Source of the DNA: Catajapyx aquilonaris
Lineage: Eukaryota
DNA: 20,000 bases
Direction of reading: 5' to 3'
Assembly: GCA_000934665.2 (NCBI GenBank)
Contig: JYFJ02001450.1
Span: 59,734-79,733 of the forward strand
In this document: positions 1 through 19,049 of the stretch, piece by piece
How the letters are laid out: each line of letters opens with the position of its first letter
Position numbering within the stretch: position 1 is the stretch's first letter
Program-made: the position numbers and the translations under genes
The notes under the pieces: generated by a model
Database searches by the model: none
What the model saw: only the letters and a program-made list of their open reading frames with translations
Told to the model about the DNA's origin: nothing

Positions 1-939
1 TACTTGCTGACATTGTTTTTAAAGGGCTGAGTAGATAGAAAATTATGATGAAAATTGTATGGCTTGAGGATGAAGAAACTTATTGCATTTGTTGGGTTGG
101 GGGCAAGGGTAAATGATTGGGAGAAAATGACTGCTTGAAGGTGAGAAAAGTTATTGCGTCGTGCACCGGCCGTAATAGCAATTAGGGAGCTACAAAAACG
201 TTTCAAATTGCTGGGAATTAATAAGGACACCGATAATTACACGGGGCATCGCAAAACCTATGCAGGCTCGTAAAATACCTACCTCATGTGGCGTACGTTA
301 TTGATATTATTGCGAGTAACAGTGACAATAATATTGTTAGTAAAGGCCGTTACACGCTACGCAAAGAACAATCTTTAGCGTTGACACAAAACGTATAGTA
401 CTGCGTATAGTTTTGTTCCCTGCTTAGGCAAAAAGGCTCTTTTGAAAGGAGGATCCCTTTCGACGCCTCTTCTCCTCATTACGTTCCCAATTGGTCATTT
501 CGAGAGGCAATCCTCTCGTTCCTCCGGGGTCAAGTCTCTCCTTGGGGACATTCGAGGCGATATCAAAGGCTCAAATTACAAGGCAGAATAGTCTGAGCAA
601 AACCAGTTGAGCAGGAGCCAGGACCAGGATGAAAGAATTACCCGCCTCATATTACACTAGCTATAGAGCATCATCGGTTTTTTGAATAACTTACAAGCTA
701 TAGCTGACGAGGACAACCCCGCTATCAAACTAGAAAGGTGCGCCGCGTTCCCACAAGGTCTCTGAATATTGGATTGCAAAAGTGACATAACCTATGGGTG
801 GGTGTGGAGTGACTTATTCCTCAAACGTGCGTTGTTGCGTGTTCCAGGACAATTACATGGAACGACGCCCTCACGTCCTATAATAAAAGAGATGGAGGTG
901 TTTCTTGAAGAATGCCCATCTTCGAATATACTTTCAGCT

Positions 940-1110
940 TGGGGTCCATTATGAGCAGCAAACATAAAGCCCTCACTTTCAGACTCGGCTATGGATTGGC
1001 AAAGGAATCCAAGCGTGACTTTTGGGGAGATCAAGCTCGATGTGGCGGAAGAAAACGGGATCAGTTTTATGATCTGAGGTCGGAAGGGCTTTATGTTGCA
1101 TCTAGAGCTT
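940..1110 (-). mobile_element. Possible decayed fragment of an RLE-type (R4/Dong-like) non-LTR retrotransposon
   Basis: The - strand gives VFFRHIE / SPKVTLGFL / SESEGFMFAA in shifted frames, resembling the 'L.SETEGF..A.QD' motif upstream of the zinc knuckle in these elements. Frameshifted and weak. Confidence 0.3.
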
Positions 1111-4100
1111 TATGTTGTTGGCGGCTACTTGTTCATAGAGTGGAAGGGGGATTAAGATCAGGGAGAAGCGTTTTGTAGTGGGAGGATGGAAAGTGCAGTA
1201 GGAGATGGGTCTGGATGATCCCAAGGCTTGGAGGGAAGCACTGCACTGGCTTGGATAGTCTAATGTTGTGTCTAGAATAATCAGTTACACAGCTGGATGA
1301 GAGAACTTTATCAGTGCTACTTTAATGAGAAATTGTCTGCAAGGAGGAATGTATACAGTTCAAATCTTCAGAGATAAATTTAAAAATGAAGTGTGTAAAA
1401 TACCAGGAAGTACTGGACACAAATAGATTTTCTGAGAAAAGAAGCAACGTCCACAGTTACATTCTAAATATTAAGGCACGTACGTTTGAGAAGCAATGAC
1501 TTGAAACCTTTTAAAATCAGCAAAAAAAACATGTTGAGAGAGAGGAAATGATACCTGATACTTGTATACCAGGAAGCTATTATCATCTTATTTATTTGTT
1601 TACAGCAGTCTTTAATTATTATTTTACTGATTAGCATTTCTTTGTTTTTTCAGGAAGAGTGATTTGTCTGGCTGAGACATTTGTCGTATAACTGCGATAG
1701 GAGACTGGGGAAAAAAACTGACAAAATCAGTCAACTGGAAATGAATCAATATTGATCGTGACCATTTCTGCAGAACCACAACAGTTCTGTTGGCAAATAT
1801 AATTTTTTGCCCTCGTGCTTAATCAAATAAAACGCTCATGCTGCTAAACTCCCACACTCTATCGCAAAGTATACTGTACAATATTGACCAATTGAAGGCG
1901 CATAGAGCAGTGTCTTGCATTACATTAATAATTACAATATTGATCACTGTTTCTATTGAGAATTTTGTATTACTCAATAGATGTCAGGATTTAAATAACC
2001 ATTCAGAATGACTTGGCATGGCAATCCGTGTGCCATTTATTGCAAAGCACTTGACATGGTACTCTATTATTCTTCCTAATTGTGAATCCTATAACCATAC
2101 GGCATGTAGCAAGTTCAAAGTCTAATTCCTGACCCAGCATGTGAATGACTGAATCATAAAATATGCATGCAGTTTATACGTGTAGCTTGGCTTACAGTAA
2201 GAGAAACTTTCCTAATTACGATTGGAATCTTATAGTTGAAATCGCCCACCTTCCTTTTTTGCGTTTCTTGAGCATAAGGCAAGTAACGATTTAAGCTGTG
2301 TACATTATTACCATGACAGGCACTTCTGTTTATGTTCCTAAACTCATGAACAATTCACATATTGCTTCCTTGGTGCTTAAAATGTTACCAGTTGCAGGGA
2401 ACATTTTTTTTGCACCAAGTAAGTGCTGTCATTATATTATTTTAATATCATTACTACTCCCATAAGCTGCTTCAGAGCTTCACTGTAATGCACAAGGACA
2501 ACCGTGTTTAAACAGCATTTAATAAAAGGCAAACCACCAGGAAGCACGACTCGTGGATGTAGTAGCATTCTGACGTTTTTTTTTTACTGTAATGGTATAC
2601 TCAGTGGCAAAGCAGTCAGTGCAAACTGATTTAGCTGAACAATTCACAAGTTATCACCCATATGACAGACCTGCGTAAGATGTCCAGTAGGCCTATAGTA
2701 CGACCAAAATCTTTGTGTGCTTGGACCTTGCCAGTGAATAGATTGATATTGCTGTCCGAAAAGGTAGGAGAAACACTCGCAGTAATGACAACGACAAGTT
2801 CGTGCAACGAATTTCGACCAGATGCATGTGAAAGGATGAAAGCAAAAAAGACTTTCTCGTGCTGTTGTAATCACGTAGTCATCCCATATGACAAAGTGAG
2901 CTTCTGACTCGTGAAGGGGCTAACCCTGCATGACACTTCAGTCGGATGCAGCAGGCGGTGGTGTTCAAGTGCTGTAACATGATTCAAAATAAAGGTATTC
3001 ACGTTCAGTATTCTCTCTGCATCAGACCGGATAATTATGAGAATGAGATACATTATTTGGGCCCTGACTGGTTTAAAAAAAATGATTAGGCCTACCATAA
3101 TGAGAAGCTTGCTTTCATTCAAAGTATATTATGCTGATGTGGTTCGCTATTAATTTCTAATGATGAGAGGGCAAGACCGATGTATAAAACATTACTCCCG
3201 GTTACAAAAAGGGATGATAAAATTTTTTGCGCATTCAATTTGAGTTCCTAGAATATATTACAACATTATAGTGACTTAGGGTGAATTACAACCGTAGAGG
3301 ATTTATCGTACCGCATACGTGCTGAAGCATTAAGGCATTATGAACTGTATTTAGTAAGATATATTAGGAGGGTATGTAAATGAGGATTTAGGCGTTTTTT
3401 GTAAGATAATAATCTTCTCGCCATATTGATTGCCAAAATTTAATTTGCCAAGTTTATCGCGGAAGGGCCTAGAGGTGGCATATCAATAAGAGTGTGTCTC
3501 AAATGACTGATGATCTGACTTTTTATTAGCACTGTTACCTAGTCCTAGCAATTAATAACTGCCGGAGCAAAAGGACCGCATTGTGTGCGACTGTGCAACG
3601 AATGTCGCCGTTTTGCAAATGATCCCAAGGGAGGAATAAATCACACGGCTTCATTCAACAGAACAGCGTTTAATGGTACTTCACCCGAGACAAGAAACAG
3701 TTGTAATACCCTCGTGTTAGACAATATAAAGCATCGCCGATCCTAAAACGCCAACAAGTGCTGTTGATCCATGCCTGCCTTTAAATTGCCTAAACTTTTA
3801 GAGACTTTCTCCATTGATCGGCCAAGCTAAGCTCGTGTTGAAGAAGAGCTGCGAGGAGAAAAAGTACACGATATGAAAAAAAGTTCGTTTGATTCTGGCC
3901 TGGCATGCACCAAAGTGTGTATGCAATCGCCTACAACAATATGTTAAAAATTTGTGAACACTAACGCCGTATCGTTTTGTTAAAATAAATGTTCAAACTA
4001 TTTTAAGCAATTCTTTGCATTGCGTGACTAAAGAGCTGGTAGCTGACTGAAATTAATCGAACCAAAAAAAGCATAGAATTTACAACTTATTCGACAGGAA

Positions 4101-5075
4101 TAATTATTATTAATAACCTACTGAAAGTTTTAGAGTCTCTTTTAATGCAGCTGATTACTGTAATCAAGATTAATCAATGCAACATACAGTACGTATCAGG
4201 GAAAAAATACTTCCGCAAGGATTTTCGTCATTCAACTATTGAATTCAATTGCATCCGCCCATATGCGGACATATTTTAGGAAGTTCATATAATTGCTTTA
4301 CTTGCTTACTAGCCTAATAAATTACGAGCTACAACGAGTACAACGAGAACCCCGCATTATAAAACGCTTCTGAAGGCACGTAACAACTTGTGTATTTACA
4401 AGAACACTTTTAATTACTCCTTTGAGTAATTTCCTTCACGCTTTGGTGCCCTTCCCTAAGTTGTTTTATCTCTCAGTAAGCCGACCTTAGATGCAAAAGA
4501 AATATATACTGCATTTATTGGACCGTTGAAAATTGTATTTAAAGGATTTCAAACATTTGAGTGAGAGGAACCAAGCAAGTAGATTAGATTCCCCGTTAAT
4601 CTAGAGAATGATTTAGATACAATGACATGTATTTAGCTTGAGTGGCGAGCATGTGATGAGGTCTCGCCTAGAAGTGGCAGCAACTTGGTCCAGTTTTTTT
4701 TTTCTTTCTGCTCACCAACTCGACCCTTCCTCGTTCATCTTTTTTTAAAACTCTTTTTCCCGGGTCCACTCTACACGCTCGGCACAATCTCGCAGCATCC
4801 CGAGGGCATCACTTTCCAGCTGTCATCAAATGCAGTTGGTTGAAGTTATCCCGCCAATTAGGTTAATGGTCAATCCGCAGAAGCGGGTGATGTAACAAGC
4901 ATTAGCTGCATTAGTCCACTTGTTTATAGTCGCTATACCAAGAAAAAAAAATATTTCCACACTTTTGCCCTTAAACTTTTCTGGGAGGTAAGGGTGGCAA
5001 CTGTGGCGCATGGAGATGACCTGTGACCCCTTGAGGAAAAAAGGGGATAGGGACAGAGCTCATTCTGTGGCCAAG

Positions 5076-5147
5076 ATGCCTTCCAGGGTGGTGGTGTGGG
5101 CGTTGCATCTCCTCGGCTGCTGTGTGTGCCAGATTCATCTATCCCAC
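5076..5147 (+). CDS. SVEP1: SVEP1-like exon 1 (putative signal peptide)
   Basis: aagATG MPSRVVVWALHLLGCCVCQIHLSH then GTAACT donor, phase 0, matching the phase-0 acceptor at 6396. In-frame upstream ATGs at 5010 and 5016 are also possible. Confidence 0.65.
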
Positions 5148-8100
5148 GTAACTGATGGACCACATTCATAAGCTGAGGATCTCAGTGTTCAGGATAAGCT
5201 TCCCTTTTGAGACGAGTAGAGCTTATGATTGTTTTTCGCATTTTCTTGGATCGCATGGTAGGCTACTGCCTGTGATAAGAGCTTTAGACCAGATATTTTT
5301 AGGCATTTTAGTATGATTAATGTGAATTTTGCTAGAGACGGGATGCAATCATCTTGTAATCTAGTCTACGGTTTTTTGTGTGTGTGCATGAATGTATGTT
5401 TGTTCTCAACGAACGTCAATATGAAGTATTCTGATTCTAGGATCTAGGACAGCATGCGATGTTTGCAAATTTTGCGCATTACGAGTGTTTTCATATGCAA
5501 ATAACGCACGCCACAAAATAATGTTTATTTGACAACTTCCCTGATCACTATATTTGATTAAAATACTCTTCCAGTCATCCCGTCCCCGTCACCTCTGCTT
5601 GGCCGGGTCTTTTTCCGCTTTTCACCCGACATGCCGGAGCAGAATTGCACTTCCTTCTCTGCTCGGGGCCAGGAGAAAAGGCCTGGTGTTAAAGAATGTC
5701 AGAAATGGCTATCGCACGGCGCCCTCCCTTGGGAACTTCCCCTTTCCCCCTAAGAGGGCCTCGAAAATAAATAAATAAATAAATAAAATAAAAATACTCT
5801 TCCAGTCGATGCAACAGCGGACAGTGTAATGATAATAAATGAGGTCGTAAGGCTACGTCGGGCCAATCTCTAAAAAAACTTAAATTTTCAGTGTAATGAT
5901 AATGTGGTCGGCTCGACTATACTCATCGAATCTTTATGCAAGTAGGCGTCTACTGTAACATTGCTACGAAACGTGTGGCTGGAGAATCGGCTACAATTAC
6001 ATGTGGGAAATTTGGCACAGAATCGTTGAGTGATTAGGATAATTGAAAACATAAAAAAACAGCCACGAAAAAGATATGTGTGTGTACATACGTACTACAT
6101 CTCAAAAAATGTGTGGAAATTGCGCGAGAACAAAATAAAGGTGTGATATTTTATTTTCCAAATCATTAGATTAGAGCCTATTTATGATTATGCGAAGAGC
6201 ACATATTTATCCCTGATTTCTGCTTCTAACGGCTGTTAGTTCCATTCTAGCAGCTTTCTTGATGTAAATGGTTTAGTCTACACTGTTGCCCATATGACGT
6301 CAATTCCATTATCCAGCAGTTTAATGAACTGTAGGCAACTGTAGGCCTATGTCTTACAGTCAGACGCCTTTTTTCAACTCCGCGCCTCATTTCAGTCTCA
6401 GACACTTGACCCGGTGCCTTCGACATCACCCATGATCTACGACCTGGATGCCCAAGCTTTGTCCCTGAGGTCAGCAGTGACCCGACTCCGAGGTCAACAC
6501 GAGACCGAGCTGGTGTTTCTCCTGGACTCGTCTTCATCCGTGGGCAAAGAGAACTTCCAGGCCGAGCTTCGTTTCGTGCGAAGACTTCTGGCCGACTTCA
6601 CCGTTTCACCTGAAGCAGCCCGTGTAGCCGTGGTGGTCTTTTCTTCAAAAAAGATGGTCCAGACCCACGTGGACCAGTTGGCAACCCCTGGGCTCAAGTG
6701 CGACCTTCTCCACATGCTCAATGTGGCATATACAGGAGGAGGCACCTACACACTTGGGGCTTTCCTGCAAGCAAATGTAAAATACACTTTCCCTATCTCT
6801 AATTAGTATTTTTTGTCCCACAACTGTAGATCCACCGCTCTCTTAATTAGTGATGTTAATTAAACGCGTTTAAAGGCAGTGCTGTCAATCTTTAAAGTGT
6901 TTTAAAATGCGACAAAAATCGGCGACAAATTGCCCTTAGATCACTAGGCTAGTTAAGAGGCACAATTTACAGCCTACTAGGAGCCATAAAGCCTTATCGT
7001 CACCGGTATAGTTATTTAACATGCATGCCGTAAATTAGACGCATGTCATTTCCCTCAGCTGCCAACATTTTTCGTGTAAATCATGAGCCGACGTCTATTC
7101 ATCAGGCCATATTGCAACATAGTCGACCGGACGCTGCCCGAGCCATATTCCTGGTGACTGATGGCTACTCCAACGCGGGCGATCCGGTACCGGCTGCGGT
7201 ACAGCTGCGGCATGACCACGTCGAAGTCTTCACCTTTGGCATACGGAACGGAAACGTTGCCGAGCTCATGGCCATGTCTTCTCATCCAGTCTCAGAACAC
7301 ACTTTTCTGCTCGACTCATTCCACCAGTTTGAAGCACTAGCTCGACGGGCTCTTCACCAAGGTGGGTTAAACAACACTAATGATTACTCGTATTATAATA
7401 ATTATTGTAATTATTGCAGATCTTCAGTCTGGTGGATATGTGGTCCAAAATGCGTCGATTTGCAAGGAGCTGTGTTATGCGACGGATGGCGATTGTTGTG
7501 ACGAGAGTGCCAGTTGCGTCTGTGGTGTTCACTCTGGAGTGTACTCCTGTGCGTGTCCTCCAGGCCACTTCGGATCCGGAATGTTAGGAGACTGCCATCG
7601 TAAGTAACAAAAACAAAGTTAAAACAAAAAAATAACAATCACATTACACGTCGCCAGAAGAGCAACAGGTGCCAACCGCAAATATCATTTGTGGCAGGCT
7701 CATTATGCCAGAATAAAGTTTCGAGGTTATTTTCACGTGCGCATGTGCATGTGGCGGTTAATTAAAAATGAGGATAATTTTTTCCAGCCTGCCCTCCGGG
7801 AACATTTCGAGATGAAGTTGGCCCCGCTGACGAATCCTCATGTAAAAGCTGCCCAGATCCTCACCAAATGTCAGCCAGTGGTTCAACAACACCCACTGAT
7901 TGCTACTGCTCCCAGGGATACACGCCCACGGACACCGGATGTGCCGGTTAGAGAATTTGTGAAAATTTATTCACGCTGTGACTTTAACACATGTTTCCAG
8001 AAAAAAACACACGCAAATTTGACCCCATCTGAGCGAGGTTAGGGGCACCCTTCAAGGGGCCATTCAAATCTATTCTGGATGTGCTTGATGCTCCTGGAGT

Positions 8101-11100
8101 AAGGTCCGTAGATCTCGAGCTGGTAATCACGGTTGGTACCAAGACGACCGTACTCTGCGTACGTTGTAGGGGGGCAAGGTGGCATCTTCTTCTCCGGGGG
8201 AGGTTCAGTAGCGGCAATGACGTCGGCTACCCCTGATCGACGCTGACTCATCAACAGAAGGTCCTGCACTATCTGGGTAGTCTCTTTGGTTTCGGAGATA
8301 CGCTTCTTCTCTTCCAGACTCTTGAACAGGTCTCTGACAGGGAGATATATTTGTTAAACACACTCGTAGCAACAATGAACGGATTCCAGATAGTTAGGTC
8401 TACAGTAGAAATATTATTCAAACACGTCTTCACTGTAGATATGAGCTAAATTATTGGACACACTGCACAACTCGATTTTTTTCCTCTTCATTTTCTTAAA
8501 GTGATAAAAATTTGTGCAATTTTGCTACGATGATCCACATTTTGTTGTTACTTACTTGTAGTGCTCTTGGACGAACCCCCAGCTTGAACGCCAATAACGT
8601 GCGGTTTTGGCCTCATGGGCGATCAGGTCGCGCCAAATTTGGTCTTGTCCAACCTGGTTGTATTTGTCGAGCTCGAAATCTGTTATCTTGGCGCCGGCCA
8701 TGACTGGAACTTTTTGTGAGACAATTTTGCGCTGAAAAGTTTAGCCTAGCTGGCGTGGGAGTCTCTTGGTAACCGGTCGCCACAGCTAACAATGAGGCAA
8801 AACTGTCATTGTTGGTCACGCACAGTCCAGAAAAAATTACGATTAGGGCCTATACTGTATATTACGATTAGACTACTATTTTCTCTTTGAACACAAAGTA
8901 GTGTATTCATTGCTCATAACGTCATAAGTATCGTAATGTACCCAACGGGCCATAATTATGACTATAGGCTACCTACGATATAGGGTAGTTTTGCTCAAGC
9001 TGATCGATGATACGCCAAAAACAATTTATATCTGCAAAATATGCAGCAACAGGGAGTCACTCCACACGCCCTTCCCACATATTTTTGCAGCCGAGTTTCT
9101 GATATCTGACGGGTGTCATACCCTGTACGTCACGGCCTGCGAAAGGAAGGTTGTTGGTGCTGGATAATTGAATCGATCAGTGTTTGGAGTAAGCCATCAA
9201 ATGAGAAATTCAGTTAGGACTTAAGAGAATATGTACGAGTAAGCTTAATAAGATGAGCTACATGGCGCAAGAAGAAACACACATAATTAGCACACAAGTC
9301 TGGAGACATTAATTTATTATTCTATAAGACCGTACTGTACATCTTTCACTGTTGATGGAATTAGTCAAATTATTATTTTGTCGCATTCTTGGGGAAAAAA
9401 TGTAATATAGTTGTTATCAAATATCAGTAGCAAAAATACTTTTAAACCATAATTTTTATTTAATTTTTATTGAAAATTATTTATATTTAGATATACTACT
9501 TAGGGCAAATTAAATGTAATTCTTGCTGAGTTTTTGACCATAGGCTATTCGTCAACAGTGCACGATCGCTGCATGCTTATCTGATTTCAAATCACTAAAG
9601 CCTACTAACAATGACACATCCGCATTATTCTCTAAGCTTATTGTTACTCAGCAGAGCAACATTGTGCAGATTATTAATTATTAATTACTAGCGTAAAGTT
9701 ATGGATATTTTCAGCATAGCACTAGAACAAAACAGGTCATTTATTATAAAGCCTCTACATGTTTACTTGAAATAATGCGCGTTAGCTCTCGAGCAATTAT
9801 GAACATGCAATTTCATATCACGTTATTGCAAAATATGCAGTGCTTGTAGTCCACCTCATTATGAACCCAACACAGAATAAAATGTACTCTCAGTCCAATG
9901 GGCCGGAAAATCAATGTTTAAAGTAAGTCTACATTAAATAGATCCGTATTACGCACCCACCACCGCTCATTTAATGAAACCCTACGGCAAGTGTACAGTA
10001 CTTTTAATTATTCATTTCAGCCGTCCAATGTCCCCCTCTTCCTCCGATTCCGAACGGCTACTTCGTCCACGGCGAATGCTTGTCCGAATTTCCGTCCGTC
10101 TGCACCATCCGCTGCCGTACCGGGTTCAGGCTGTCAGGAAGCGACGTCCTGGTGTGCTCCTCCGACGGCACGTGGACTGGCAACATCCCACGCTGCATAG
10201 GTAGGTAGGTCAACATTGCAGATCCGGCACATTTACTAATGGTCATGCTTCATGATGCATCGTGTGATTCCAGCCGTTGATTGTCCTCCTCTCCGGGCTC
10301 CCCGTAACGGAGCGATGGACTGCGACCAGCCCAGTGGTGACCATCATCAACAGTGTCGCTTCACATGCGACCAAGGGTACGCTCTGGTGGGTGTCCATCG
10401 ACATACCTGTCTCCCTGGAGGGACCTGGGATGGCGTCACAACTTTGTGCAGGCGTGAGTATACAGCACCTACACATTCATCGGACCATATTTTAAAGTGT
10501 TGAAACACTGATTACTCACTGTGTTAAAAATAGACAATGTAATGTGAAAAAGGACGTTTAAAATGGGATAGTTCTACTCGTAGCATACATGCTGATATTC
10601 GCTGATCATTGCAGCTTTTTGTTGGCGCAAATAAAATATTCGCGCGCGTGTGTACTGTAATGTCAAAAAAGCATTTTGTTCGCAAAACCATGAATATATT
10701 GTAAATGTAGGTTAGCTCTGCAGTGCAGTGTACTCGTATATGAGTTAATCAAAATGGAATAAAATCCTCACCGAAAGTACGGTTCTATAATAATAATGTG
10801 TGAAAAGTGCTCACTTGCAAACGAAGCACTGCAGAGCAGATTTTAGGGTCATAACTTCATTTGAATGAAGAGCTTTACAGTTTTGCAAAAAAAACAAAAA
10901 AAAACATAATGACCAGAAACCACATCCGAGGCTTAGCTTGCAATTTATTAACATAAAATAATGAGCGTGCAAGAGAAGGGTGCTCTGAATCGATCGCATC
11001 ATGTGCTGTATACTGATTGTAAAAGATTAGAGATGCTCTCTGATGACTGAATTCTCTTTCCAGCTGTGTTGTGCCAACCGTTGAACCTGCCCCAACCTCT

Positions 11101-14100
11101 GAGTGTCACAACACGGTGTACGGTGACTAAAGTACAGTACGGAACCACATGCGACATCGGTTGTCTTCCCGGATTCAAGCTTGAAGGAGCTCCAAATGTG
11201 ACCTGCATCGGACACGGATTCTGGAGTGAAGATCTGGACACTTTGAGGTGTGTGGACCATGTTCCTCCTGAGATTATGTGTCCTGATGACCTGGCCGTGG
11301 ACGCTGCGGAGGACGAGTCTTGGGCGCTGGTCAGGTGGGACATACCGGTACCTGTGGACAACTCAGGACTAGTGACCATCACTAGGGCCATCCCGAGCGT
11401 GTCCCCGCCCAGGAAGATGCCAATCGGGATCCATGATGTGACATACATTTCTCAGGATGTGTTTGAAAACGAGGCGAACTGCACCTTCCGCATATCTGTC
11501 ACAGGTAACACCATTTTACTGTACTTACTGCTACATAACCTGATCAATTATTTACATGCTCAGACCGCCAACCACCCAAAGCAGAAGACTGTATTTCACC
11601 TCCGCCCTTTTTATCGAGTGACCCAAACGTGGAGCTGCAATGGGAAGAGCCCACATTTTGGGACAATTCAGGTCAAGAGGTTGTGGTCACCCGGTATCCA
11701 ACCGGCAACACCTTCAAATACGGAACCACCAACGTTACATACAGCGGTACAGACCCTTTTGGAAACACAGTCGAATGCACCATTCAAGTCACCATGCAAG
11801 GTATATGTCCACTATGCTCTCACTAAAGTCAATCGGACAGCGTCCGTAAACGTATTTTATTTGGGACAGAACATGCCTGCGAGCAGATGCCAGACCCTCT
11901 GCATGGTTACTCCAACTGCAGCCGACTTCCAGAAGGACTTGTGTGCACCTTGTCCTGCGAAGATGGATACGCATTCGCACTTAGAGAGCAGCCACTGTAC
12001 TTTTGCGCATTTGACGATGGCTGGGAGCACACCACAAACGTCCTTCCTCTTCCTGACTGCTCTGGTGAGTACAGGCACACTTTTACTATATACACACCTA
12101 ATATAACGTTGCACTTGCCAGTGACGGTACTTCCAACAAGTGTCGCAATGGGAGGAGACCTGGATTTGGACATGATTCTTCCGGAGTTTTGTCACCAACC
12201 GGAACTTCTCGCATTGTTGCTGGAAGGTGTTAGGCACCAGCTGACCGAAAAGGTGCGGGAGTCGTGTCCGGACGGCCTGCGCTGTTCTCTGGACATACAC
12301 GACGCTATGGACACCCTGTGCGGACAAAGGCACAGACGGTCAATCGGCAACAATGTGCTCAAGTTCAACCTGACTGTCGAAGGCGATACGACCAAATTTG
12401 AAGAATTGTCGTCTCGCTTGTCAAAAGAAGAGGTAAAAGTTTTCATCCAGGGACAAAGAGTTTTGGTTGGACGAGTTAAGCCGACAAGGATGTTTCTGAG
12501 TTGCCCGGAAGGATCAACGGCATCGGCTGACAGGCGAAAATGCGGTGAGCGAATTACTTTCTCACAAATTGCTTATTGATCACATGATGCTCACATGTTT
12601 TTTTGGTTCCTTCATCAGTTAAATGCCCTGCCGGATCATACTTTTCTGGAGCTGGAAAATGCTCCAGGTGTCCTAAAGGATCGTACCAGAACTTGCAGGG
12701 TCAGCTGGCTTGCAAAGTGTGTCCGGAGGGAACGTCCACGAAGAAATCCGGACAGAAGAAGAAGGCAAACTGCTCGGGTGAGACAATCCAACGGGCAGTA
12801 CTTGACTTGCGTTTGAAGGTGTGTGTCCTCCCGGCAGGTTTTCTCGTCATGGTCTTGAGCCGTGTCGAGCATGCCGCAAAAGTTGGTTCCAGCCTCTTGA
12901 AGGTTCCTCCAGTTGCTTCAGGTGTCCACGAAAAGCGAGGACACTCAGGAAGGGTTCGACGCGAGCTGGTGACTGCAGAGGTACCTGGTTCCGTCAGTTA
13001 AAATGTTTACATCAATTTACAGCCCGCAAACGTTGCAGATCCGTGTCCTCCGGGCAGTGCTTCTCCAACCGGACTGTCCCCATGTCTTCCGTGTCCTCGT
13101 GGATTTGTCCAGCCCAAAGAAGGACGCACCCTGTGCATTCGGTCGCAAGACCGTACCAAGAGGGTTGAAAACAACTCGTTGTCGTTGATCTCCGCTGCTG
13201 ACGATTGCTTCTCGTCACCTTGCCAATCTGGAGGGACGTGTCGGCCTATGGACGTCGGATTTGTGTGTGTATGTCCGGCAGGATTGTCCGGAAACACTTG
13301 CACCGAAGAGGTTGATCCGTGCCTGTCCTCACCGTGTCTCCGTGCCGGTACATGCCAACATGTACGTGGCGGGCTCCAGTACCGGTGTTTATGTCCCAGA
13401 GGTGTGACAGGATCACGTTGCGAGGTGTTAGACGCATGTGCGTCGTCTCCGTGTAGCAGAGGCGCCACTTGCGTCAACATACCAGGCGGGTTCTTCTGCC
13501 AGTGCAGCATCGGTACGTCCGGAAAACGATGCGAACTGAACGACGACGACTGTGCCGGCGCCACTTGTTTCAACGGCGGAACTTGCGTCGACGGTATCGG
13601 TCGATACACCTGCTTGTGTGCGAGGGGATTCGTTGGGAAGTACTGTGAGGACAGGGTACGGCTGTGCTCTCGAGGTGCCTGTCTGCACAAGGGAGTGTGC
13701 GTCGACACCGACGACGCCGTCGGATTCAGATGCGAATGTCAAGCTAATTACGGCGGTCGTCGTTGCGAGAGAAGAGTGACGGCGTGTCACAGCAATCCAT
13801 GCCCAGAAGGCTCTACTTGCCGGGAAGTACCTGCACGAAGCGGTATTGTCAAGTGCATGTGTCCTCCTGGTCGTACCGGTACCGACTGCCAGATTGGTAA
13901 GTTATAGTTGACGTAGAAATAGAGTTTCGGATCATTCCAACATGTGGCATTTACAGAAGTGGCTGGAAATTTCTCTCTGGTGTTTCCTGTCCCGCGTGTG
14001 ACCAGCGACGTGGTCGTGTTGGACACTGGACTTCGTCGAGACCTGACCCAATTCACGCTGTGCATGTGGATACGGAGCGAAGACAAGCTTCATTACGGGA

Positions 14101-16356
14101 CGCCGTTCTCGTTTGCCACTAGACAAAGCGACAACTCCTTGACCTTGACAGACACCAACGGGTTCGTCCTGTACGTCCTAGGTCAAAGGGCAGTCACAGA
14201 CGCCACAGCCAACGACGCCCGTTGGCACCACTTTTGCGCCACTTGGACGTCCATCGGAGGTCAGTGGACCCTGCACCGAGATGGACAGGAGCTGTCGTCT
14301 GGTCATGGACTGGCCTCAGGAGCGGTCATACCCAAGGAGGGTACGGCCACTCTGGGCCAGGATCAGGACAGACCCGGAGGAGGATTTTCAGCTGTGGAGG
14401 CCCTTGTTGGAGGACTGTCCCATGCGGACTTGTGGGACAGGGTGTTGGACTCTGAGGAAGTGTCCAACTTGTCCCAAAGCTGCCAGCCGCCCTTGGGCAA
14501 CGTGTTGGCTTGGACTGACTTCGCAGATGGACTGCGTGGGAGGGTCAGCATGGACACTGACCCACTGTGCAGTGGATGTCCGGTTCTGGTGCCTCCGGTG
14601 CAAGGTGCGGTAGAGGTGATGGATGATGGGACGTCCAGAGTGGACTGCAACAAGGGGTTTTTGTTGGAGGGGTCTCCGCTGCGAAAGTGTCTTCCAAGTG
14701 GTCATTGGGATGGAGCAGAACCCACTTGTCATCGTAAGTTTTTAGTTCAATATAGCCTACTGTAGGCCTACAATCTAAGCTCTAACAATATAAGTAAGTG
14801 AATATGAATGGATACCAATTACTAATATTTCAGGTGTAAAGTGCCCACCAATGCTCATTACCAATGGGTATGTTGCTGGGGGTGGTTACTACGGGGACAT
14901 ACGGTCATTGCAGTGCAAAGCTGGGTACATGTTGTCTGGACCGAAGCAGTCAGAGTGCCAGTCGGATGGGACCTGGAGTAACATGGAGGAATCTTACTGT
15001 CACGATGGTATGCGCTGTCATGAAATTTTATAGCATGAGCATGACACATTTTGTTAATTTTCAGGGTCAATGTGCAACCCTCCTCTGCCACCTGAGAATG
15101 GCACCACAGTGATCAATGGTCCAATTGCTCAGTTTTCATGCTTACCTGGTTTCCACCTGCAAGGAACTCGCACCCTAACCTGTTTGGAAGATGGTACCTG
15201 GAGTGGCCAATCCCCCCAATGCCTCATACATTGTCCACCTGTACAGGTAAAAAAAATTATCAGTGCATTTAAAAGTTATTGTTCGTCATGCTCCACACTT
15301 GAATTAATGACATCCTTATGCCATTTACAGCCTCCATCAAATGGAACACTTGTCCTTGACAATGAAAATCTCACTCTGGATGGGTACGAAGCAAGTGGAG
15401 CATCTGTTGGTTCTAAGGTGACATTCAGTTGCCATGAGGGCGCCGTATTGGATGGTCCAAATGAGCTGGAGTGTGGGTCTGATGGTTCCTGGTCAGCAGA
15501 ACCACCAATCTGCATCCCAGAATGTCCATACCCATCAGCACCCACAAATGGCTGGGTTCGGGTGGCAGGAAGGCGACCTGGTGATGTCGCGTCATACGGG
15601 TGCAAAGATGGGCATGTGTTGAACGGAAGCTCTGAAAGTGTCTGCTCCAATTTAGGGACATGGAGTGCACCACCTTCCTGTCGGGTCAAGTCCTGTGATA
15701 AGCCTGTTACCAAAGGAGGAGCATCCATAGCTGGATTTGGGTACAATGTTGGACGTCGAATGTTGGTCACCTGCCCTCCAGGTCACCGTCCAATTGGAGG
15801 TGACATTTTGGTCTGTACAGACTCTCTCACTTGGGAAGGCGGTGAAGCAGAGTGTGTGGCAGTCTGCACAACTCCATGCTTGAATGACGGGAAGTGTATC
15901 AGACAGGATTTATGTGCTTGCCCTGCCGGCTACACTGGAGCTCTATGTCAGCACTGTACGTAACACCACAGCATTTTCCATATGCCACGCACAGCTGGTA
16001 AATGTATTGTACCTAGCATGAATCCAGATTTCTGATTGAACATGTCACATCACACAATTTAAACATGGTGTTTAAATGAGCCTCTCTGAATTCTGCCTGT
16101 AGAGTCCTATCAGCCTTTAATAACAACTAATAAGTATGTTTGTATTCTAGCTCTGTGTGTGGTACCATGCCAAAATGGAGGAAGTTGTACAAGTCCGTTC
16201 ATGTGCACCTGTCCTGAAGGGTACACTGGGGATGCATGTCAGACACATTTGTACAGCTCAGGTACAGTATGTTCATGTGATGCCCCTGCTATGCACTCAC
16301 CTTTTCTAAAAATAGTAGCTAAATCCACCTTGTTTGTTTCCTTTACTGTTTTTTAA
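5076..16356 (+). CDS. SVEP1: SVEP1/polydom-like protein (sushi, vWA, EGF, pentraxin, HYR), spliced, ~1948 aa (~1930 aa if the alternative last exon 16531-16571 is used)
   Basis: Hand-assembled phase-compatible GT-AG exons: 5076-5147, 6396-6776, 7106-7361, 7420-7599, 7788-7946, 10021-10200, 10274-10453, 11064-11504, 11564-11800, 11870-12064, 12122-12544, 12619-12777, 12819-12980, 13039-13896, 13957-14733, 14834-15007, 15065-15246, 15331-15955, 16151-16356. Domain order is signal peptide, vWA (MIDAS DSSSS...T...TDG), Cys-rich/ephrin-rec-like, 3 sushi, 2 HYR, sushi, 3 ephrin-rec-like, 6 EGF, pentraxin, 6 sushi, 2 EGF. This is the characteristic SVEP1 architecture. Confidence 0.93.
5560..5807 (+). 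mobile_element. Short 5'-truncated non-LTR retroposon (LINE 3' end or SINE) with target-site duplication
   Basis: Exact 17-bp direct repeat AAAATACTCTTCCAGTC at 5560-5576 and 5791-5807 flanks a 214-bp GC-richer insert ending in an (AAAT)n tail. Confidence 0.8.
6396..6776 (+). CDS. SVEP1: SVEP1-like exon 2 (vWA N-half)
   Basis: tttcag acceptor; ELVFLLDSSSSVGKENF...RVAVVVFS...YTGGGTYT; GTAAAA donor. Confidence 0.9.
7106..7361 (+). CDS. SVEP1: SVEP1-like exon 3 (vWA C-half)
   Basis: catcag acceptor; AIFLVTDGYSNAGDP...VFTFGI...FEALARRALHQ; GTGGGT donor. Confidence 0.92.
7420..7599 (+). CDS. SVEP1: SVEP1-like exon 4 (Cys-rich/EGF-like)
   Basis: ttgcag acceptor; CCDESASCVCGVHSGVYSCACPPGHFGSG; GTAAGT donor. 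Confidence 0.9.
7788..7946 (+). CDS. SVEP1: SVEP1-like exon 5 (ephrin-receptor-like Cys repeat)
   Basis: ttccag acceptor; CPPGTFRDEVGPADESSCKSCPDPHQMSASGSTTPTDCYCSQGY; GTTAGA donor; this frame is not in the ORF track. Confidence 0.9.
8039..8701 (-). CDS. CIMIP1: C20orf85/CIMIP1 (LLC1)-like ciliary microtubule inner protein, 146 aa, nested antisense in SVEP1 intron 5
   Basis: Exon 1 is 8701-8556 (MAGAKITDFELDKYNQVGQDQIWRDLIAHEAKTARYWRSSWGFVQEHY, GTAAGT donor, phase 2). Exon 2 is 8333-8039 (ctgtcag acceptor; KDLFKSLEEK...PPCPPTTYAEYG...FEWPLEGCP*). The motifs NxVGQDxIW, WxxxWGF, PPxPxTT and C-terminal WPxxG match C20orf85 as I recall it. AATAAA on the - strand at 7971-7966. Confidence 0.82.
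8761..8773 (-). promoter_or_regulatory. RFX X-box-like motif upstream of the nested ciliary gene
   Basis: GTTACCAAGAGAC on the - strand (GTCTCTTGGTAAC on +), 60 nt upstream of the ATG at 8701; it has one perfect GGTAAC half-site. Confidence 0.55.
10021..10200 (+). CDS. SVEP1: SVEP1-like exon 6 (sushi)
   Basis: tttcag acceptor; VQCPPLPPIPNGYFVHGEC...CTIRCRTGFRLSGSDVLVCSSDGTWTGNIPRC; GTAGGT donor. Confidence 0.92.
   Translation, partial: PSNVPLFLRFRTATSSTANACPNFRPSAPSAAVPGSGCQEATSWCAPPTARGLATSHAA
10274..10453 (+). CDS. SVEP1: SVEP1-like exon 7 (sushi)
   Basis: ttccag acceptor; VDCPPLRAPRNG...CRFTCDQGYALVG...CLPGGTWDG; GTGAGT donor. Confidence 0.92.
11064..11504 (+). CDS. SVEP1: SVEP1-like exon 8 (sushi + HYR)
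   Basis: ttccag acceptor; CDIGCLPGFKLEG...CVDHVPPEIMCP...WDIPVPVDNSG...CTFRISV; GTAACA donor. Confidence 0.92.
11564..11800 (+). CDS. SVEP1: SVEP1-like exon 9 (HYR)
   Basis: gctcag acceptor; DRQPPKAEDCISPP...WEEPTFWDNSG...GNTFKYGTTNVTYSGTDPFGNTVEC; GTATAT donor. Confidence 0.92.
11870..12064 (+). CDS. SVEP1: SVEP1-like exon 10 (sushi-like)
   Basis: ggacag acceptor; CEQMPDPLHGYSNC...CTLSCEDGYAF...LPDCS; GTGAGT donor. Confidence 0.88.
12122..12544 (+). CDS. SVEP1: SVEP1-like exon 11 (linker with RHRR furin-type site)
   Basis: tgccag acceptor; ...CGQRHRRSIG...SCPEGSTASADRRKC; GTGAGC donor. Confidence 0.85.
12619..12777 (+). CDS. SVEP1: SVEP1-like exon 12 (ephrin-rec-like)
   Basis: catcag acceptor; VKCPAGSYF...CSRCPKGSYQNLQGQLACKVCPEG; GTGAGA donor. 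Confidence 0.92.
12819..12980 (+). CDS. SVEP1: SVEP1-like exon 13 (ephrin-rec-like)
   Basis: ttgaag acceptor after a 41-nt intron; CPPGRFSRHGLEPCRAC...FQPLEGSSSCFRCP; GTACCT donor. Confidence 0.88.
13039..13896 (+). CDS. SVEP1: SVEP1-like exon 14 (Cys repeat + 6 EGF)
   Basis: ttgcag acceptor; DPCPPGSASPTGLSPCLPCPRG, then six EGF repeats (e.g. DDCFSSPCQSGGTC); GTAAGT donor. Confidence 0.93.
13957..14733 (+). CDS. SVEP1: SVEP1-like exon 15 (pentraxin/LamG + sushi)
   Basis: ttacag acceptor; FTLCMW...YGTPFSFAT...WHHFCATWTS...LGQDQD...LWDRVL; GTAAGT donor. Confidence 0.94.
14834..15007 (+). CDS. SVEP1: SVEP1-like exon 16 (sushi)
   Basis: tttcag acceptor; VKCPPMLITNG...CKAGYMLSG...CQSDGTWS; GTATGC donor. 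Confidence 0.9.
15065..15246 (+). CDS. SVEP1: SVEP1-like exon 17 (sushi)
   Basis: tttcag acceptor; CNPPLPPENG...FSCLPGFHLQG...CLEDGTWSG; CAG/GTAAAA donor. Confidence 0.88.
15331..15955 (+). CDS. SVEP1: SVEP1-like exon 18 (3 sushi + EGF)
   Basis: ttacag acceptor; three sushi repeats, then CTTPCLNDGKCIRQDLCACPAGYTG; GTACGT donor. Confidence 0.9.
16151..16356 (+). CDS. SVEP1: SVEP1-like exon 19 (terminal EGF); may end at donor 16261 and splice to 16531-16571
   Basis: ttctag acceptor; LCVVPCQNGGSCTSPFMCTCPEGYTGDACQ; the 3' end is ambiguous. Confidence 0.75.
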
Positions 16357-16867
16357 TTGGTAATATATGAATCACCCTGACTGACCATTCTTATCTGAAC
16401 TATTTGTATGAATAGGCAACACTAAGATGTCACTGGGACAGTGAGGCATTTCGCAGTCCCTACTTCTCATGTAGAAAATATTTATATGGATTCTCTCTGT
16501 ATTCAATTAGTTTTCTTCGGATTCTTACAGAGCATTTCAATTATAACACTGTGCATTTAATTAACTTATAATTAACAACCATTTTATTTTAACATGTAAT
16601 AAACATTCACAGGATATGTCGCATCATGTAGAAATTGCAACTAACTTGTAAGTCACTGCATTCCTATTTGCAAGAGAGCATTATACTATTGATCACATTA
16701 TCATGAATTTGACATATTATTTAAAAAAAATAAATGCCACGTTTCCTGTGGTACTGAAATTTTACGTCTCTTAAACCTTGATATTTATATAACTTATCAC
16801 ATTAACATTATTGTCCTTCTACTTTCAGACTGTACAGGAAAATTCTGCAACCACAGCTGAACGGCCA

Positions 16868-17224
16868 TTACTTTGGAGGTATAACTTGCGCAGTCCCTTC
16901 TACTGCCACAGGCCCGTCTTCATTCTCGACTTTGCATTGAAACCGACATGACGCAATCCGCCTGGTCAATGGTGACGTTATCTCCACCTCCAAGCACACC
17001 TGATCACCACAATAAACAGCTGATGGGAACCTTGCTTCAATTTTAGTTACTACAGTACCAGGGCCAGGTAACTTTGTCCCTACTATGCCAGCCACCAGTG
17101 ACAAGAGGTACGATCCAGGCACCACTCCTCTTTTCCCAGAGTGGATTGGATTTGAGTCGCCAGTCAGGGCAACAAATGCGGCGACGTCTTGAGAGGTGAT
17201 CAAGCGGATGAGTCGAGCCCTCAT
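16868..17224 (-). CDS. HTD2: HTD2-like hydroxyacyl-thioester dehydratase (MaoC/hotdog fold, mitochondrial FAS II), intronless, 118 aa
   Basis: ITSQDVAAFVALTGDSNPIH (hydratase-2 D-x-N-P-x-H motif), GTKLPGPG, RFPSAVYCGD and VEG near the C-terminus. ATG context is acaATGa (A at -3). Confidence 0.85.
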   Translation of the reverse strand: MRARLIRLITSQDVAAFVALTGDSNPIHSGKRGVVPGSYLLSLVAGIVGTKLPGPGTVVTKIEARFPSAVYCGDQVCLEVEITSPLTRRIASCRFQCKVENEDGPVAVEGTAQVIPPK

Positions 17225-17860
17225 TGTGGTAATGGTATGGAAGCACGTAGCGTTGACAACTGGTGCACGTCTGGGTTTATTTCATGCAGGAGGGAGGAAG
17301 CGACATTCTTCACGCGTGCGTCTGGGCTTGAAGCTAACCGCAAAATGCAGTCCAGCACTGGTACTGAGGTCAAAACTGGCTTTGACTCAGGGCAGGCAAG
17401 GTAGTACAGGGTCGTTACTGCTGTTAAGACAATGTCCTCATCAGGTGATGATAAGCAGGTGACAATTAGTGGAAGTGCCCCTTTGGTGACTACAATGTCG
17501 CGAGTCTCAGGATCTGTTGAAGGGACATGACAGAGTTAGATCCTTAAAACTGGTAAATACTTGTACAATGTAAACCGCTAATTACCTGCAACCAAGTTGC
17601 AGAGTCCGCTCAGGGCGAATCTCTTCAGTTCAGGCGATGATGGATTTCCAACCTCGTTCAAGAACAGGTCGATCACATTCAGCTGGCGCAGATACTCAAA
17701 GTTTACTGGATCATATGCAAAATTGGCCAAGTTTGCCAGGACCTGGCACCGAGCCTCTGGTGTAATGAGAGCGGAGCGATAAAAATGAATTAATCATCGT
17801 CACAGATTCATTGCGCTTGTCATAATGATTATTACATTATTGTTGTTGTTGTTGTTGCTG

Positions 17861-17938
<78 letters not shown>

Positions 17939-18069
17939 ATAATTATACAGTATCACACACCTTTTGAGTTGGTGTCCTGAAACTCTGTGACTAGCTGCTG
18001 CAGGTAGTTGTATCTGTCCGTTCCCTTTGACCCGGTCCGTCTGGCAAGGCGGTACTTGCTGGAGAACAT
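17221..18069 (-). CDS. ARMC7: Armadillo repeat-containing protein 7, 190 aa, 3 exons
   Basis: Exons are 18069-17961 ([36 protein letters not shown]), 17756-17586 ([33 protein letters not shown]...[11 protein letters not shown]) and 17513-17221 (DPETRDIV...[20 protein letters not shown]...[10 protein letters not shown]...IPLPQ*). Both introns are GT-AG, phase 1. [10 protein letters not shown] and [13 protein letters not shown] are ARMC7 hallmark motifs. Absent from the ORF track. Confidence 0.93.
17838..17946. repeat. Compound (TTG)n/(TTA)n microsatellite in ARMC7 intron 1
   Basis: Directly visible trinucleotide runs, with more than 20 TTA units. Confidence 0.95.
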
Positions 18070-18679: not shown

Positions 18680-19049
18680 GCAGGTTTGGCAAAATTTTGC
18701 AAGATACACATCGACAATAATTCCACGCAGCAGGTGGCACGTACTGAGTGGGTTCCAATTGAAGTGTCCGTTTCATTTTGCAAATTTTTACGAAAATTTG
18801 TGCGAAAAATTCGCTAATAAAATGTATTTGGCTTATATAGCCTTATCAACCCAAATACGTGTAACTTACTGTATTTGCGAATATTGCAAAATGAGACGGC
18901 TCCATCAATCGGAGGTCAATTTGCAAATTTTTCGCACACATATTTCCCGAAATTTGCAAAATGAAACGCACATTTAAATTGGAACCCACTCAGCACGTGC
19001 CACCTTCTGAATGGAATTGATGTGTCTTGCAGAATTTTGCCAAATCTGC
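18680..19049. mobile_element. MITE-like element with long imperfect terminal inverted repeats
   Basis: Left arm ~18680-18815 (gcaggtttggcaaaattttgcaaga...ggtggcacgtactgagtgggttccaatt...gtttcattttgcaaattt) is the reverse complement of right arm ~18920-19049 (aaatttgcaaaatgaaac...aattggaacccactcagcacgtgccacc...tcttgcagaattttgccaaatctgc). No convincing coding capacity. Confidence 0.75.

Follow-up and report, generated by a model that had tools for sequence, protein, structure and literature searches.

Does the longest intron of the SVEP1 gene of Catajapyx aquilonaris hold a second, working gene on the opposite strand, and, if so, to which family does that gene belong, in which cells would it be expressed, and does its position matter to the host gene? 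The window analysed is a 20-kb stretch of contig JYFJ02001450.1 (59,734-79,733), and all coordinates given here are those of the window (Table 1). On its minus strand we found a two-exon gene of the CIMIP1/C20orf85 family (Pfam LLC1) nested in SVEP1, with a cluster of RFX X-box sites upstream of its start codon, and the orthologous intron of one other animal carries no such gene; the gene structure, the family, the nesting, the X-box cluster and that one empty intron are established. Beyond them, we consider it probable that this intact gene, wholly contained in SVEP1 intron 5, is read in axoneme-building cells from what is likely its own RFX X-box promoter, that its product is a predicted inner-wall protein of the doublet, and that the nesting most likely arose by a lineage-specific relocation without any shared function.

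The entire coding sequence of the nested gene (8039-8701) lies inside intron 5 (7947-10020) on the strand opposite to SVEP1. Once spliced, its reading frame comprises 146 codons and a stop without any frameshift or internal stop, and the unspliced reading ends after codon 49. A first-pass annotation of this DNA had proposed a two-exon minus-strand gene with a phase-2 GT-AG junction and a 146-amino-acid (aa) product, followed by AATAAA about 70 nucleotides (nt) past the stop; all of its coordinates held, and the AATAAA begins 67 nt after the TAA. Scored with a splice matrix trained on the 18 host SVEP1 introns, the donor (6.5 bits) and the acceptor (6.2 bits) both fall within the range of the host introns, and they rank 28th of 1206 and 52nd of 1157, respectively, among the minus-strand sites. 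The pair 8555/8334 tops the 26 donor-acceptor pairs that keep the frame open, with 12.7 bits versus 10.0 for the next. The GC content at third codon positions (GC3) is 0.62, compared with 0.54 in the host gene and a GC content of 0.34-0.37 in the adjoining intron DNA, and the GC3 of the nested gene thus resembles that of coding sequence. No Rfam match was obtained across 7600-10300. Judged from these sequence features, the nested gene is likely to be functional and to be turned on where cilia are built. Two kinds of alternative junction were rejected: a donor 4 nt further downstream, with which an in-frame TAA would be read, and the other acceptors, which score far lower.

Table 1. Positions in the window of the nested gene, its host SVEP1, candidate control signals and the neighbouring genes.
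Feature	Position	Strand	Details
CIMIP1/LLC1-like coding exon 1	8701-8556	-	146 nt; ATG 8701-8699; 48 codons + 2 nt
Nested-gene intron	8555-8334	-	222 nt, GT-AG, phase 2
Branch-like sites in nested-gene intron	8397, 8357	-	sequence
CIMIP1/LLC1-like coding exon 2	8333-8039	-	295 nt; stop TAA 8041-8039
RFX X-box	8773-8761	-	matches the strict Drosophila consensus GYTRYY-N1-3-RRHRAC exactly; ~60 nt upstream of ATG
Second X-box-like site	8790-8776	-	1 mismatch
Third X-box-like site	8819-8805	-	1 mismatch; overlaps RYMAAYA forkhead core 8816-8810
AATAAA, candidate poly(A) signal	7971-7966	-	67 nt after stop, 19 nt from host donor
Candidate cleavage CA sites (7943-7940) and putative GU-rich downstream element	7910-7943	-	antisense in SVEP1 exon 5
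SVEP1 (host gene)	5076-16261	+	19 coding exons modelled; 3' end not fixed
SVEP1 exon 5	7788-7946	+	Ephrin_rec_like, Pfam PF07699; tblastn to Timema SVEP1 P0016
SVEP1 intron 5	7947-10020	+	2074 nt, phase 1
SVEP1 exon 6	10021-10200	+	first sushi domain, Pfam PF00084; tblastn
ARMC7	~18069-17221	-	PDB match 7dvq_K, E 1e-16
HTD2-like MaoC open reading frame	17224-16868	-	118 codons; best PDB match human HTD2 3ir3, E 1e-14

The assignment to C20orf85/CIMIP1 (LLC1), also put forward in the first-pass annotation, was borne out by Pfam, PDB and full-length homologue matches. Each exon alone exceeds the gathering cut-off of Pfam LLC1/PF14945 (27.3 bits), exon 1 with 39.3 bits at profile positions 6-41 and exon 2 with 37.4 bits at positions 66-119, that is, in colinear order, and LLC1 is the only Pfam family above cut-off for either. 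All three PDB matches of exon 1 at E values up to 1 are C20orf85/CIMIP1 chains (8otz_P, 9v10_Ea and 8snb_1f; best E 0.003). Exon 2 alone has two PDB matches, one being C20orf85/CIMIP1 and the other a weak match to a Pro-rich stretch (E 0.26). When exon 2 was combined with two homologues into one profile, three PDB matches were retrieved, all of them C20orf85/CIMIP1 (E 9e-13 to 3e-10). The two full-length homologues found among 22 candidates (two-sequence profile), P0019 and the C20orf85-like protein P0020 of a sponge, are both LLC1 proteins. When a profile was built from these two proteins only, the two exons ranked first and second (E 3.2e-13 and 1e-6) among the 646 segments obtained from the window in six frames, and the next-best segment had an E of 1.1. 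The spliced product aligns from its first to its last residue with both P0019 (34% identity, E 3e-23) and the sponge protein (28%, E 1e-17); exon 1 is 47% identical to residues 1-49 of the latter (tblastn), and exon 2 matches P0019 with 42% identity over 48 aa and P0020 with 35% over 46 aa (BLASTP). Both conserved blocks of the family are present and colinear over the full length of the protein, namely the N-terminal N-x-V-x-Q-x-x-I-W ... W-G-F block and, in exon 2, the C-terminal block consisting of an SNYG-like stretch and a terminal W-P block. The start and the end are likewise aligned with those of the family, and the length of 146 aa compares with 128-206 aa in other members, whereas the linker between the blocks differs, an Arg replaces the Trp after a conserved Gly, and the gene described here is nested in SVEP1.

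Another reading is that the product is a different inner protein of the SNYG group (FAM183/CFAP144, SPMIP11 or CFAP90 type) rather than a CIMIP1 orthologue. C20orf85/CIMIP1 is itself reported as a member of the SNYG group of microtubule inner proteins, which SPMIP11 and FAM183 share (PMC10973386), and in a language-model search the neighbours of exon 2 were SPMIP11 and FAM183 clusters (score ~0.9, with recognition under the reliable level). In the same search, however, exon 1 retrieved LLC1 clusters first, no family other than LLC1 passed the Pfam cut-off for either exon, and every PDB match of the profile combining exon 2 with its homologues is C20orf85/CIMIP1, as a result of which we regard a different SNYG protein as highly improbable. 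Of the SNYG motif, [ST]-N-x-x-[ILVY]-G, the nested gene has the Thr, the aromatic residue and the Gly, followed by Arg in place of Trp; the Asn is absent, as it also is from the aligned C20orf85 chains.

Other searches added little to the family. Exon 1 alone yielded no homologue candidate among longer proteins, and an all-protein HMMER scan gave five matches, of which one is an LLC1 protein (P0008) and the other four, long proteins aligned via repeated stretches, were rejected by eye and by name. None of the 82 pattern matches in a metagenome scan for the nested gene was confirmed. No arthropod CIMIP1 was retrieved, the searches being insensitive and no absence being claimed. After 50 residues over which they are identical, P0008 and P0019 part ways in the manner expected if P0008 read into an intron; that intron would lie 4 nt later than the 8555 donor. 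A second GT is also present 4 nt beyond the nested donor (8551-8555 region), where the reading meets an in-frame stop. The offset possibly reflects an old intron that slid; donors of the GTAAGT type yield such a second GT anyway.

How would the gene be switched on from inside another gene's intron? Three X-box-like sites span 60-118 nt upstream of its ATG, the nearest of which is one of only two matches to the strict Drosophila consensus (taken from PMC2375033) on both strands of the window. Just 4 of the 396 sliding 200-nt windows contain at least three sites including a perfect one, and all four overlap the promoter of the nested gene; neither SVEP1 nor ARMC7 has an X-box site upstream of its start. 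The arrangement resembles that reported for promoters controlled by RFX together with Fd3F/FOXJ1, such as that of CG31320/HEATR2, in which a well-matched X-box near the start is likewise accompanied by relaxed boxes nearby (PMC4168999, PMC2375033), and paired X-boxes are described as typical of motile-cilium genes (PMC4168999). The resemblance does not extend to the forkhead core at 8816-8810, which is at chance level here (P 0.45) and was rejected. The other strict match, at 677-690, is surrounded by AT-rich DNA in which no nearby gene was recognised, and is probably due to chance.

In shuffled sequence, a cluster of this kind occurred with P 0.003 when 200 nt were shuffled 3000 times and with P 0.017 when 500 nt were shuffled 1200 times, probabilities that have to be read together with several points weighing against our interpretation of the locus, the first being that the mismatch thresholds were set post hoc, with the sites already seen. 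The single strict X-box has a P of 0.045 (5000 shuffles), and the strictest consensus, RTNRCC-N1-3-RGYAAC, has no match. An X-box without conservation is not predictive of RFX control, according to the part of PMC2375033 drawn on here. A strong minus-strand acceptor is present at 8732 (10.7 bits, with a matrix that includes one mis-set host acceptor), and an intron in the 5' untranslated region (UTR) is therefore possible, in which case the X-boxes would lie inside an intron. As for the protein, the Trp that follows the conserved Gly in all five homologues shown is Arg in the nested gene. Finally, the synteny comparison described below covers one other species.

The replacement of G-W by G-R is also what might be expected if the functional CIMIP1 were located elsewhere in the genome and the nested gene were a copy of it, either recently duplicated or in decay; nested genes often originate as young duplicates. 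Nevertheless, the frame is intact, its Met is aligned with Met1 of the homologues and its C-terminus with the end of the sponge protein, and the intron, good splice sites, high GC3 and X-box cluster have all been kept. We also found neither direct nor inverted repeats flanking the nested gene that would suggest the scar of a recent insertion. A duplicate or decaying copy therefore appears quite unlikely to us. Among the flies, about 10% of genes are reported to be nested, mostly in antisense orientation, with the internal genes often testis-biased. The opposite-strand nested genes described for Drosophila (PMC5174743, PMC3814207, PMC13343718) share with the gene found here a small size with one intron, the opposite strand, a place in the longest intron of the host and a likely testis-type function, but the guest in our case is an ancient conserved gene and not a young duplicate. 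As antisense nesting is common, the nesting of CIMIP1 in SVEP1 is real but ordinary. No title on a CIMIP1-SVEP1 nested pair was present among the literature matches listed.

The host gene was modelled by hand from open reading frames (ORFs) and tblastn with the Timema SVEP1 protein (P0016), resulting in 18 GT-AG introns and 1960 open codons. A Pfam scan of 21 segments placed vWA, ephrin-like (Ephrin_rec_like), sushi, HYR, EGF and pentraxin domains in this order, and a signal peptide was recognised by eye in exon 1. The order vWA, ephrin-like, sushi, HYR, EGF, pentraxin and sushi is colinear with that in the Timema protein, which has 2333 aa, compared with ~1960 codons modelled here, where intron 5 carries the nested gene. 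The introns are numbered by coding exons only, and a 5'-UTR exon would shift the number. The donor 7946/7947 and the acceptor 10020/10021 are both phase 1, and intron 5, with its 2074 nt, is indeed the longest of the 18 introns, as the first-pass annotation had claimed, the next having 1212 nt.

Is the nesting old? Three of the 435 matches in a scan with the vWA exon of the host were confirmed as loci (L001-L003). L003 does not extend as far as the intron, and L001 and L002, being 99.7% identical, were counted as one species. L001 possesses the same exons with the same phases as SVEP1 exons 3-6 and has the intron positions after exons 3-6 in common with our model; over these exons the identity of the host protein is 51% with L001 and 47.5% with Timema. 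Its orthologous intron (8915-10222 in L001) has the same flanking exons and phase as intron 5, and a CIMIP1 signal with E below 1 was found in 0 of 371 and 0 of 340 segments. It follows that the intron is old and that the L001 animal does not share the nesting. With the ancestral state inferred, a lineage-specific relocation without shared function is the most likely origin of the nesting. In human, the CIMIP1 and SVEP1 genes sit on different chromosomes. ORFs resembling the C-terminal exons of a sugar transporter were noticed by eye upstream of SVEP1 in L001 (657-1943, plus strand). No gene of this type was recognised in positions 1-5000 of the window, and the upstream neighbourhood of SVEP1 therefore seems not to be conserved.

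Where the nested transcript ends decides how far it could touch its host. Taken alone, the AATAAA near the nested stop is weak (P 0.055, 5000 shuffles), and four further AATAAA occur on the minus strand in the remaining 1221 nt of intron 5. CA dinucleotides follow 6, 8, 24 and 26 nt past the AATAAA, the last two being inside host exon 5, and the GU-rich stretch antisense in that exon has 9 GT/TG steps in 30 nt, which places it in the top 3.1% of minus-strand 30-mers; its GU-richness may merely reflect the Thr/Pro codons of the host. An overlap of the nested 3' end with the host donor 7946/7947 is plausible from this layout.

Such an overlap would suit the view that the nesting is functional, i.e., that the active guest alters the host by blocking SVEP1 transcription or exon 5 splicing, or that the palindromic X-box promoter fires forward and yields a short SVEP1 transcript from exon 6. 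The AATAAA 19 nt from the donor, together with the CA sites and the GU-rich stretch within exon 5, speaks for it, and related cases are reported: the nested gene of the ceh-10/polq-1 pair in Caenorhabditis elegans induces a short host transcript (PMC12274878), and in mammalian testis changes in host isoforms accompany the expression of nested genes (PMC11694760). On the other hand, the poly(A) signal is near chance and the GU-rich stretch explicable by host codons, the nested arrangement is absent from L001/L002, a transcript starting in intron 5 would be devoid of the signal-peptide exon, and most mammalian nested pairs, some testis pairs excepted, have no strong expression relation in the part of PMC11694760 drawn on here. 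We consequently judge functional nesting to be unlikely. Antisense interference or mutually exclusive expression, which the first-pass annotation had considered possible, would be a general expectation for nested pairs and nothing special to the SVEP1 locus. As a more specific speculation, the host donor could split the 3'-processing signal of the guest, with AAUAAA in intron 5 and, antisense in exon 5, both the GU-rich element and the site of cleavage; together with the triple X-box, this could form an RFX-driven switch that silences or truncates SVEP1 in axoneme-building cells, a scenario that we consider improbable.

Returning to a relocated gene that works independently of its host, we propose the following course of events. 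RFX would bind the sites at 8761-8819 and turn the nested gene on in axoneme-building cells, giving a short transcript that would be spliced at 8556/8333 and cleaved near 7942, at or just inside SVEP1 exon 5. Two parts of the protein, its N-terminal helix block and the SNYG-like block at the C-terminus, would contact tubulin in the lumen of the doublet, as do those of the solved CIMIP1 chains. The relocation of the gene into a long host intron would have been tolerated, and host and guest may coexist because the cells that require SVEP1, a matrix protein that is secreted, are for the most part not those that require CIMIP1. A motile-axoneme role, as inferred in the first-pass annotation, would fit the CIMIP1 family, of which CIMIP1 in mouse sperm is reported as a resolved doublet inner protein (PMC13066092). 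C20orf85 is also described as a multiciliation candidate, and Ecdysozoa as lacking multiciliated cells, in the part of PMC8470418 drawn on here. If the animal is an arthropod, the cells in question would be sperm or chordotonal neurons and not ciliated epithelia. As an addition to the improbable switch, and again for an arthropod, a doublet inner protein known from multiciliated epithelia and sperm would be in use in animals devoid of multiciliated cells, chordotonal cilia being one conceivable place.

For genome annotation, the locus is an instance of a conserved axonemal gene liable to be split or missed by ORF-based callers. It also adds a divergent invertebrate member to the CIMIP1 family, whose representatives retrieved here comprise the sponge protein, metagenome records and three PDB chains, and its compact promoter with three X-boxes offers a convenient test case for RFX control. 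The import would be larger if the 3' end of the guest did overlap with the host donor and alter the output of SVEP1, or if CIMIP1 served sensory rather than sperm cilia.

Several minor features of the window deserve mention. At 16151-16420, the SVEP1 model continues beyond the last EGF exon into a tail rich in AT, and the true end of the gene may be formed by a donor near 16261 and another small exon, near 16417. The model also includes a GT-AG intron of just 41 nt (12778-12818), the other small introns measuring 57-84 nt. SVEP1 on the plus strand and a unit of ARMC7 and an HTD2-like MaoC ORF on the minus strand converge at 16357-16734, where plus-strand AATAAA (16598, 16729) and minus-strand AATAAA (16588) and ATTAAA (16561, 16357) are found, and the 3' UTRs of the two units therefore probably overlap. 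Within the minus-strand unit, the TGA that ends ARMC7 (17223-17221) and the ATG at the start of the MaoC ORF (17224-17222) overlap in an ATGA (17221-17224), which makes the pair a candidate for a two-protein mRNA. Vertebrate HTD2 is reported to be bicistronic with RPP14 (PMC5932603), and ARMC7 would therefore be a different partner; no title on an ARMC7-HTD2 pair occurred among the literature matches listed. The HTD2 match begins a few residues ahead of the ATG at 17224 and no targeting peptide is evident, so that the ORF may instead be spliced or begin further upstream. The last ARMC7 exon contains an AATAAA at 17281, and the first ARMC7 intron contains a trinucleotide microsatellite of TTG and then TTA units (17836-17945). 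Upstream of ARMC7, two similar stretches of ~110 nt in opposite orientation (18680-18800 and 18915-19040) possibly represent a small non-autonomous transposon.

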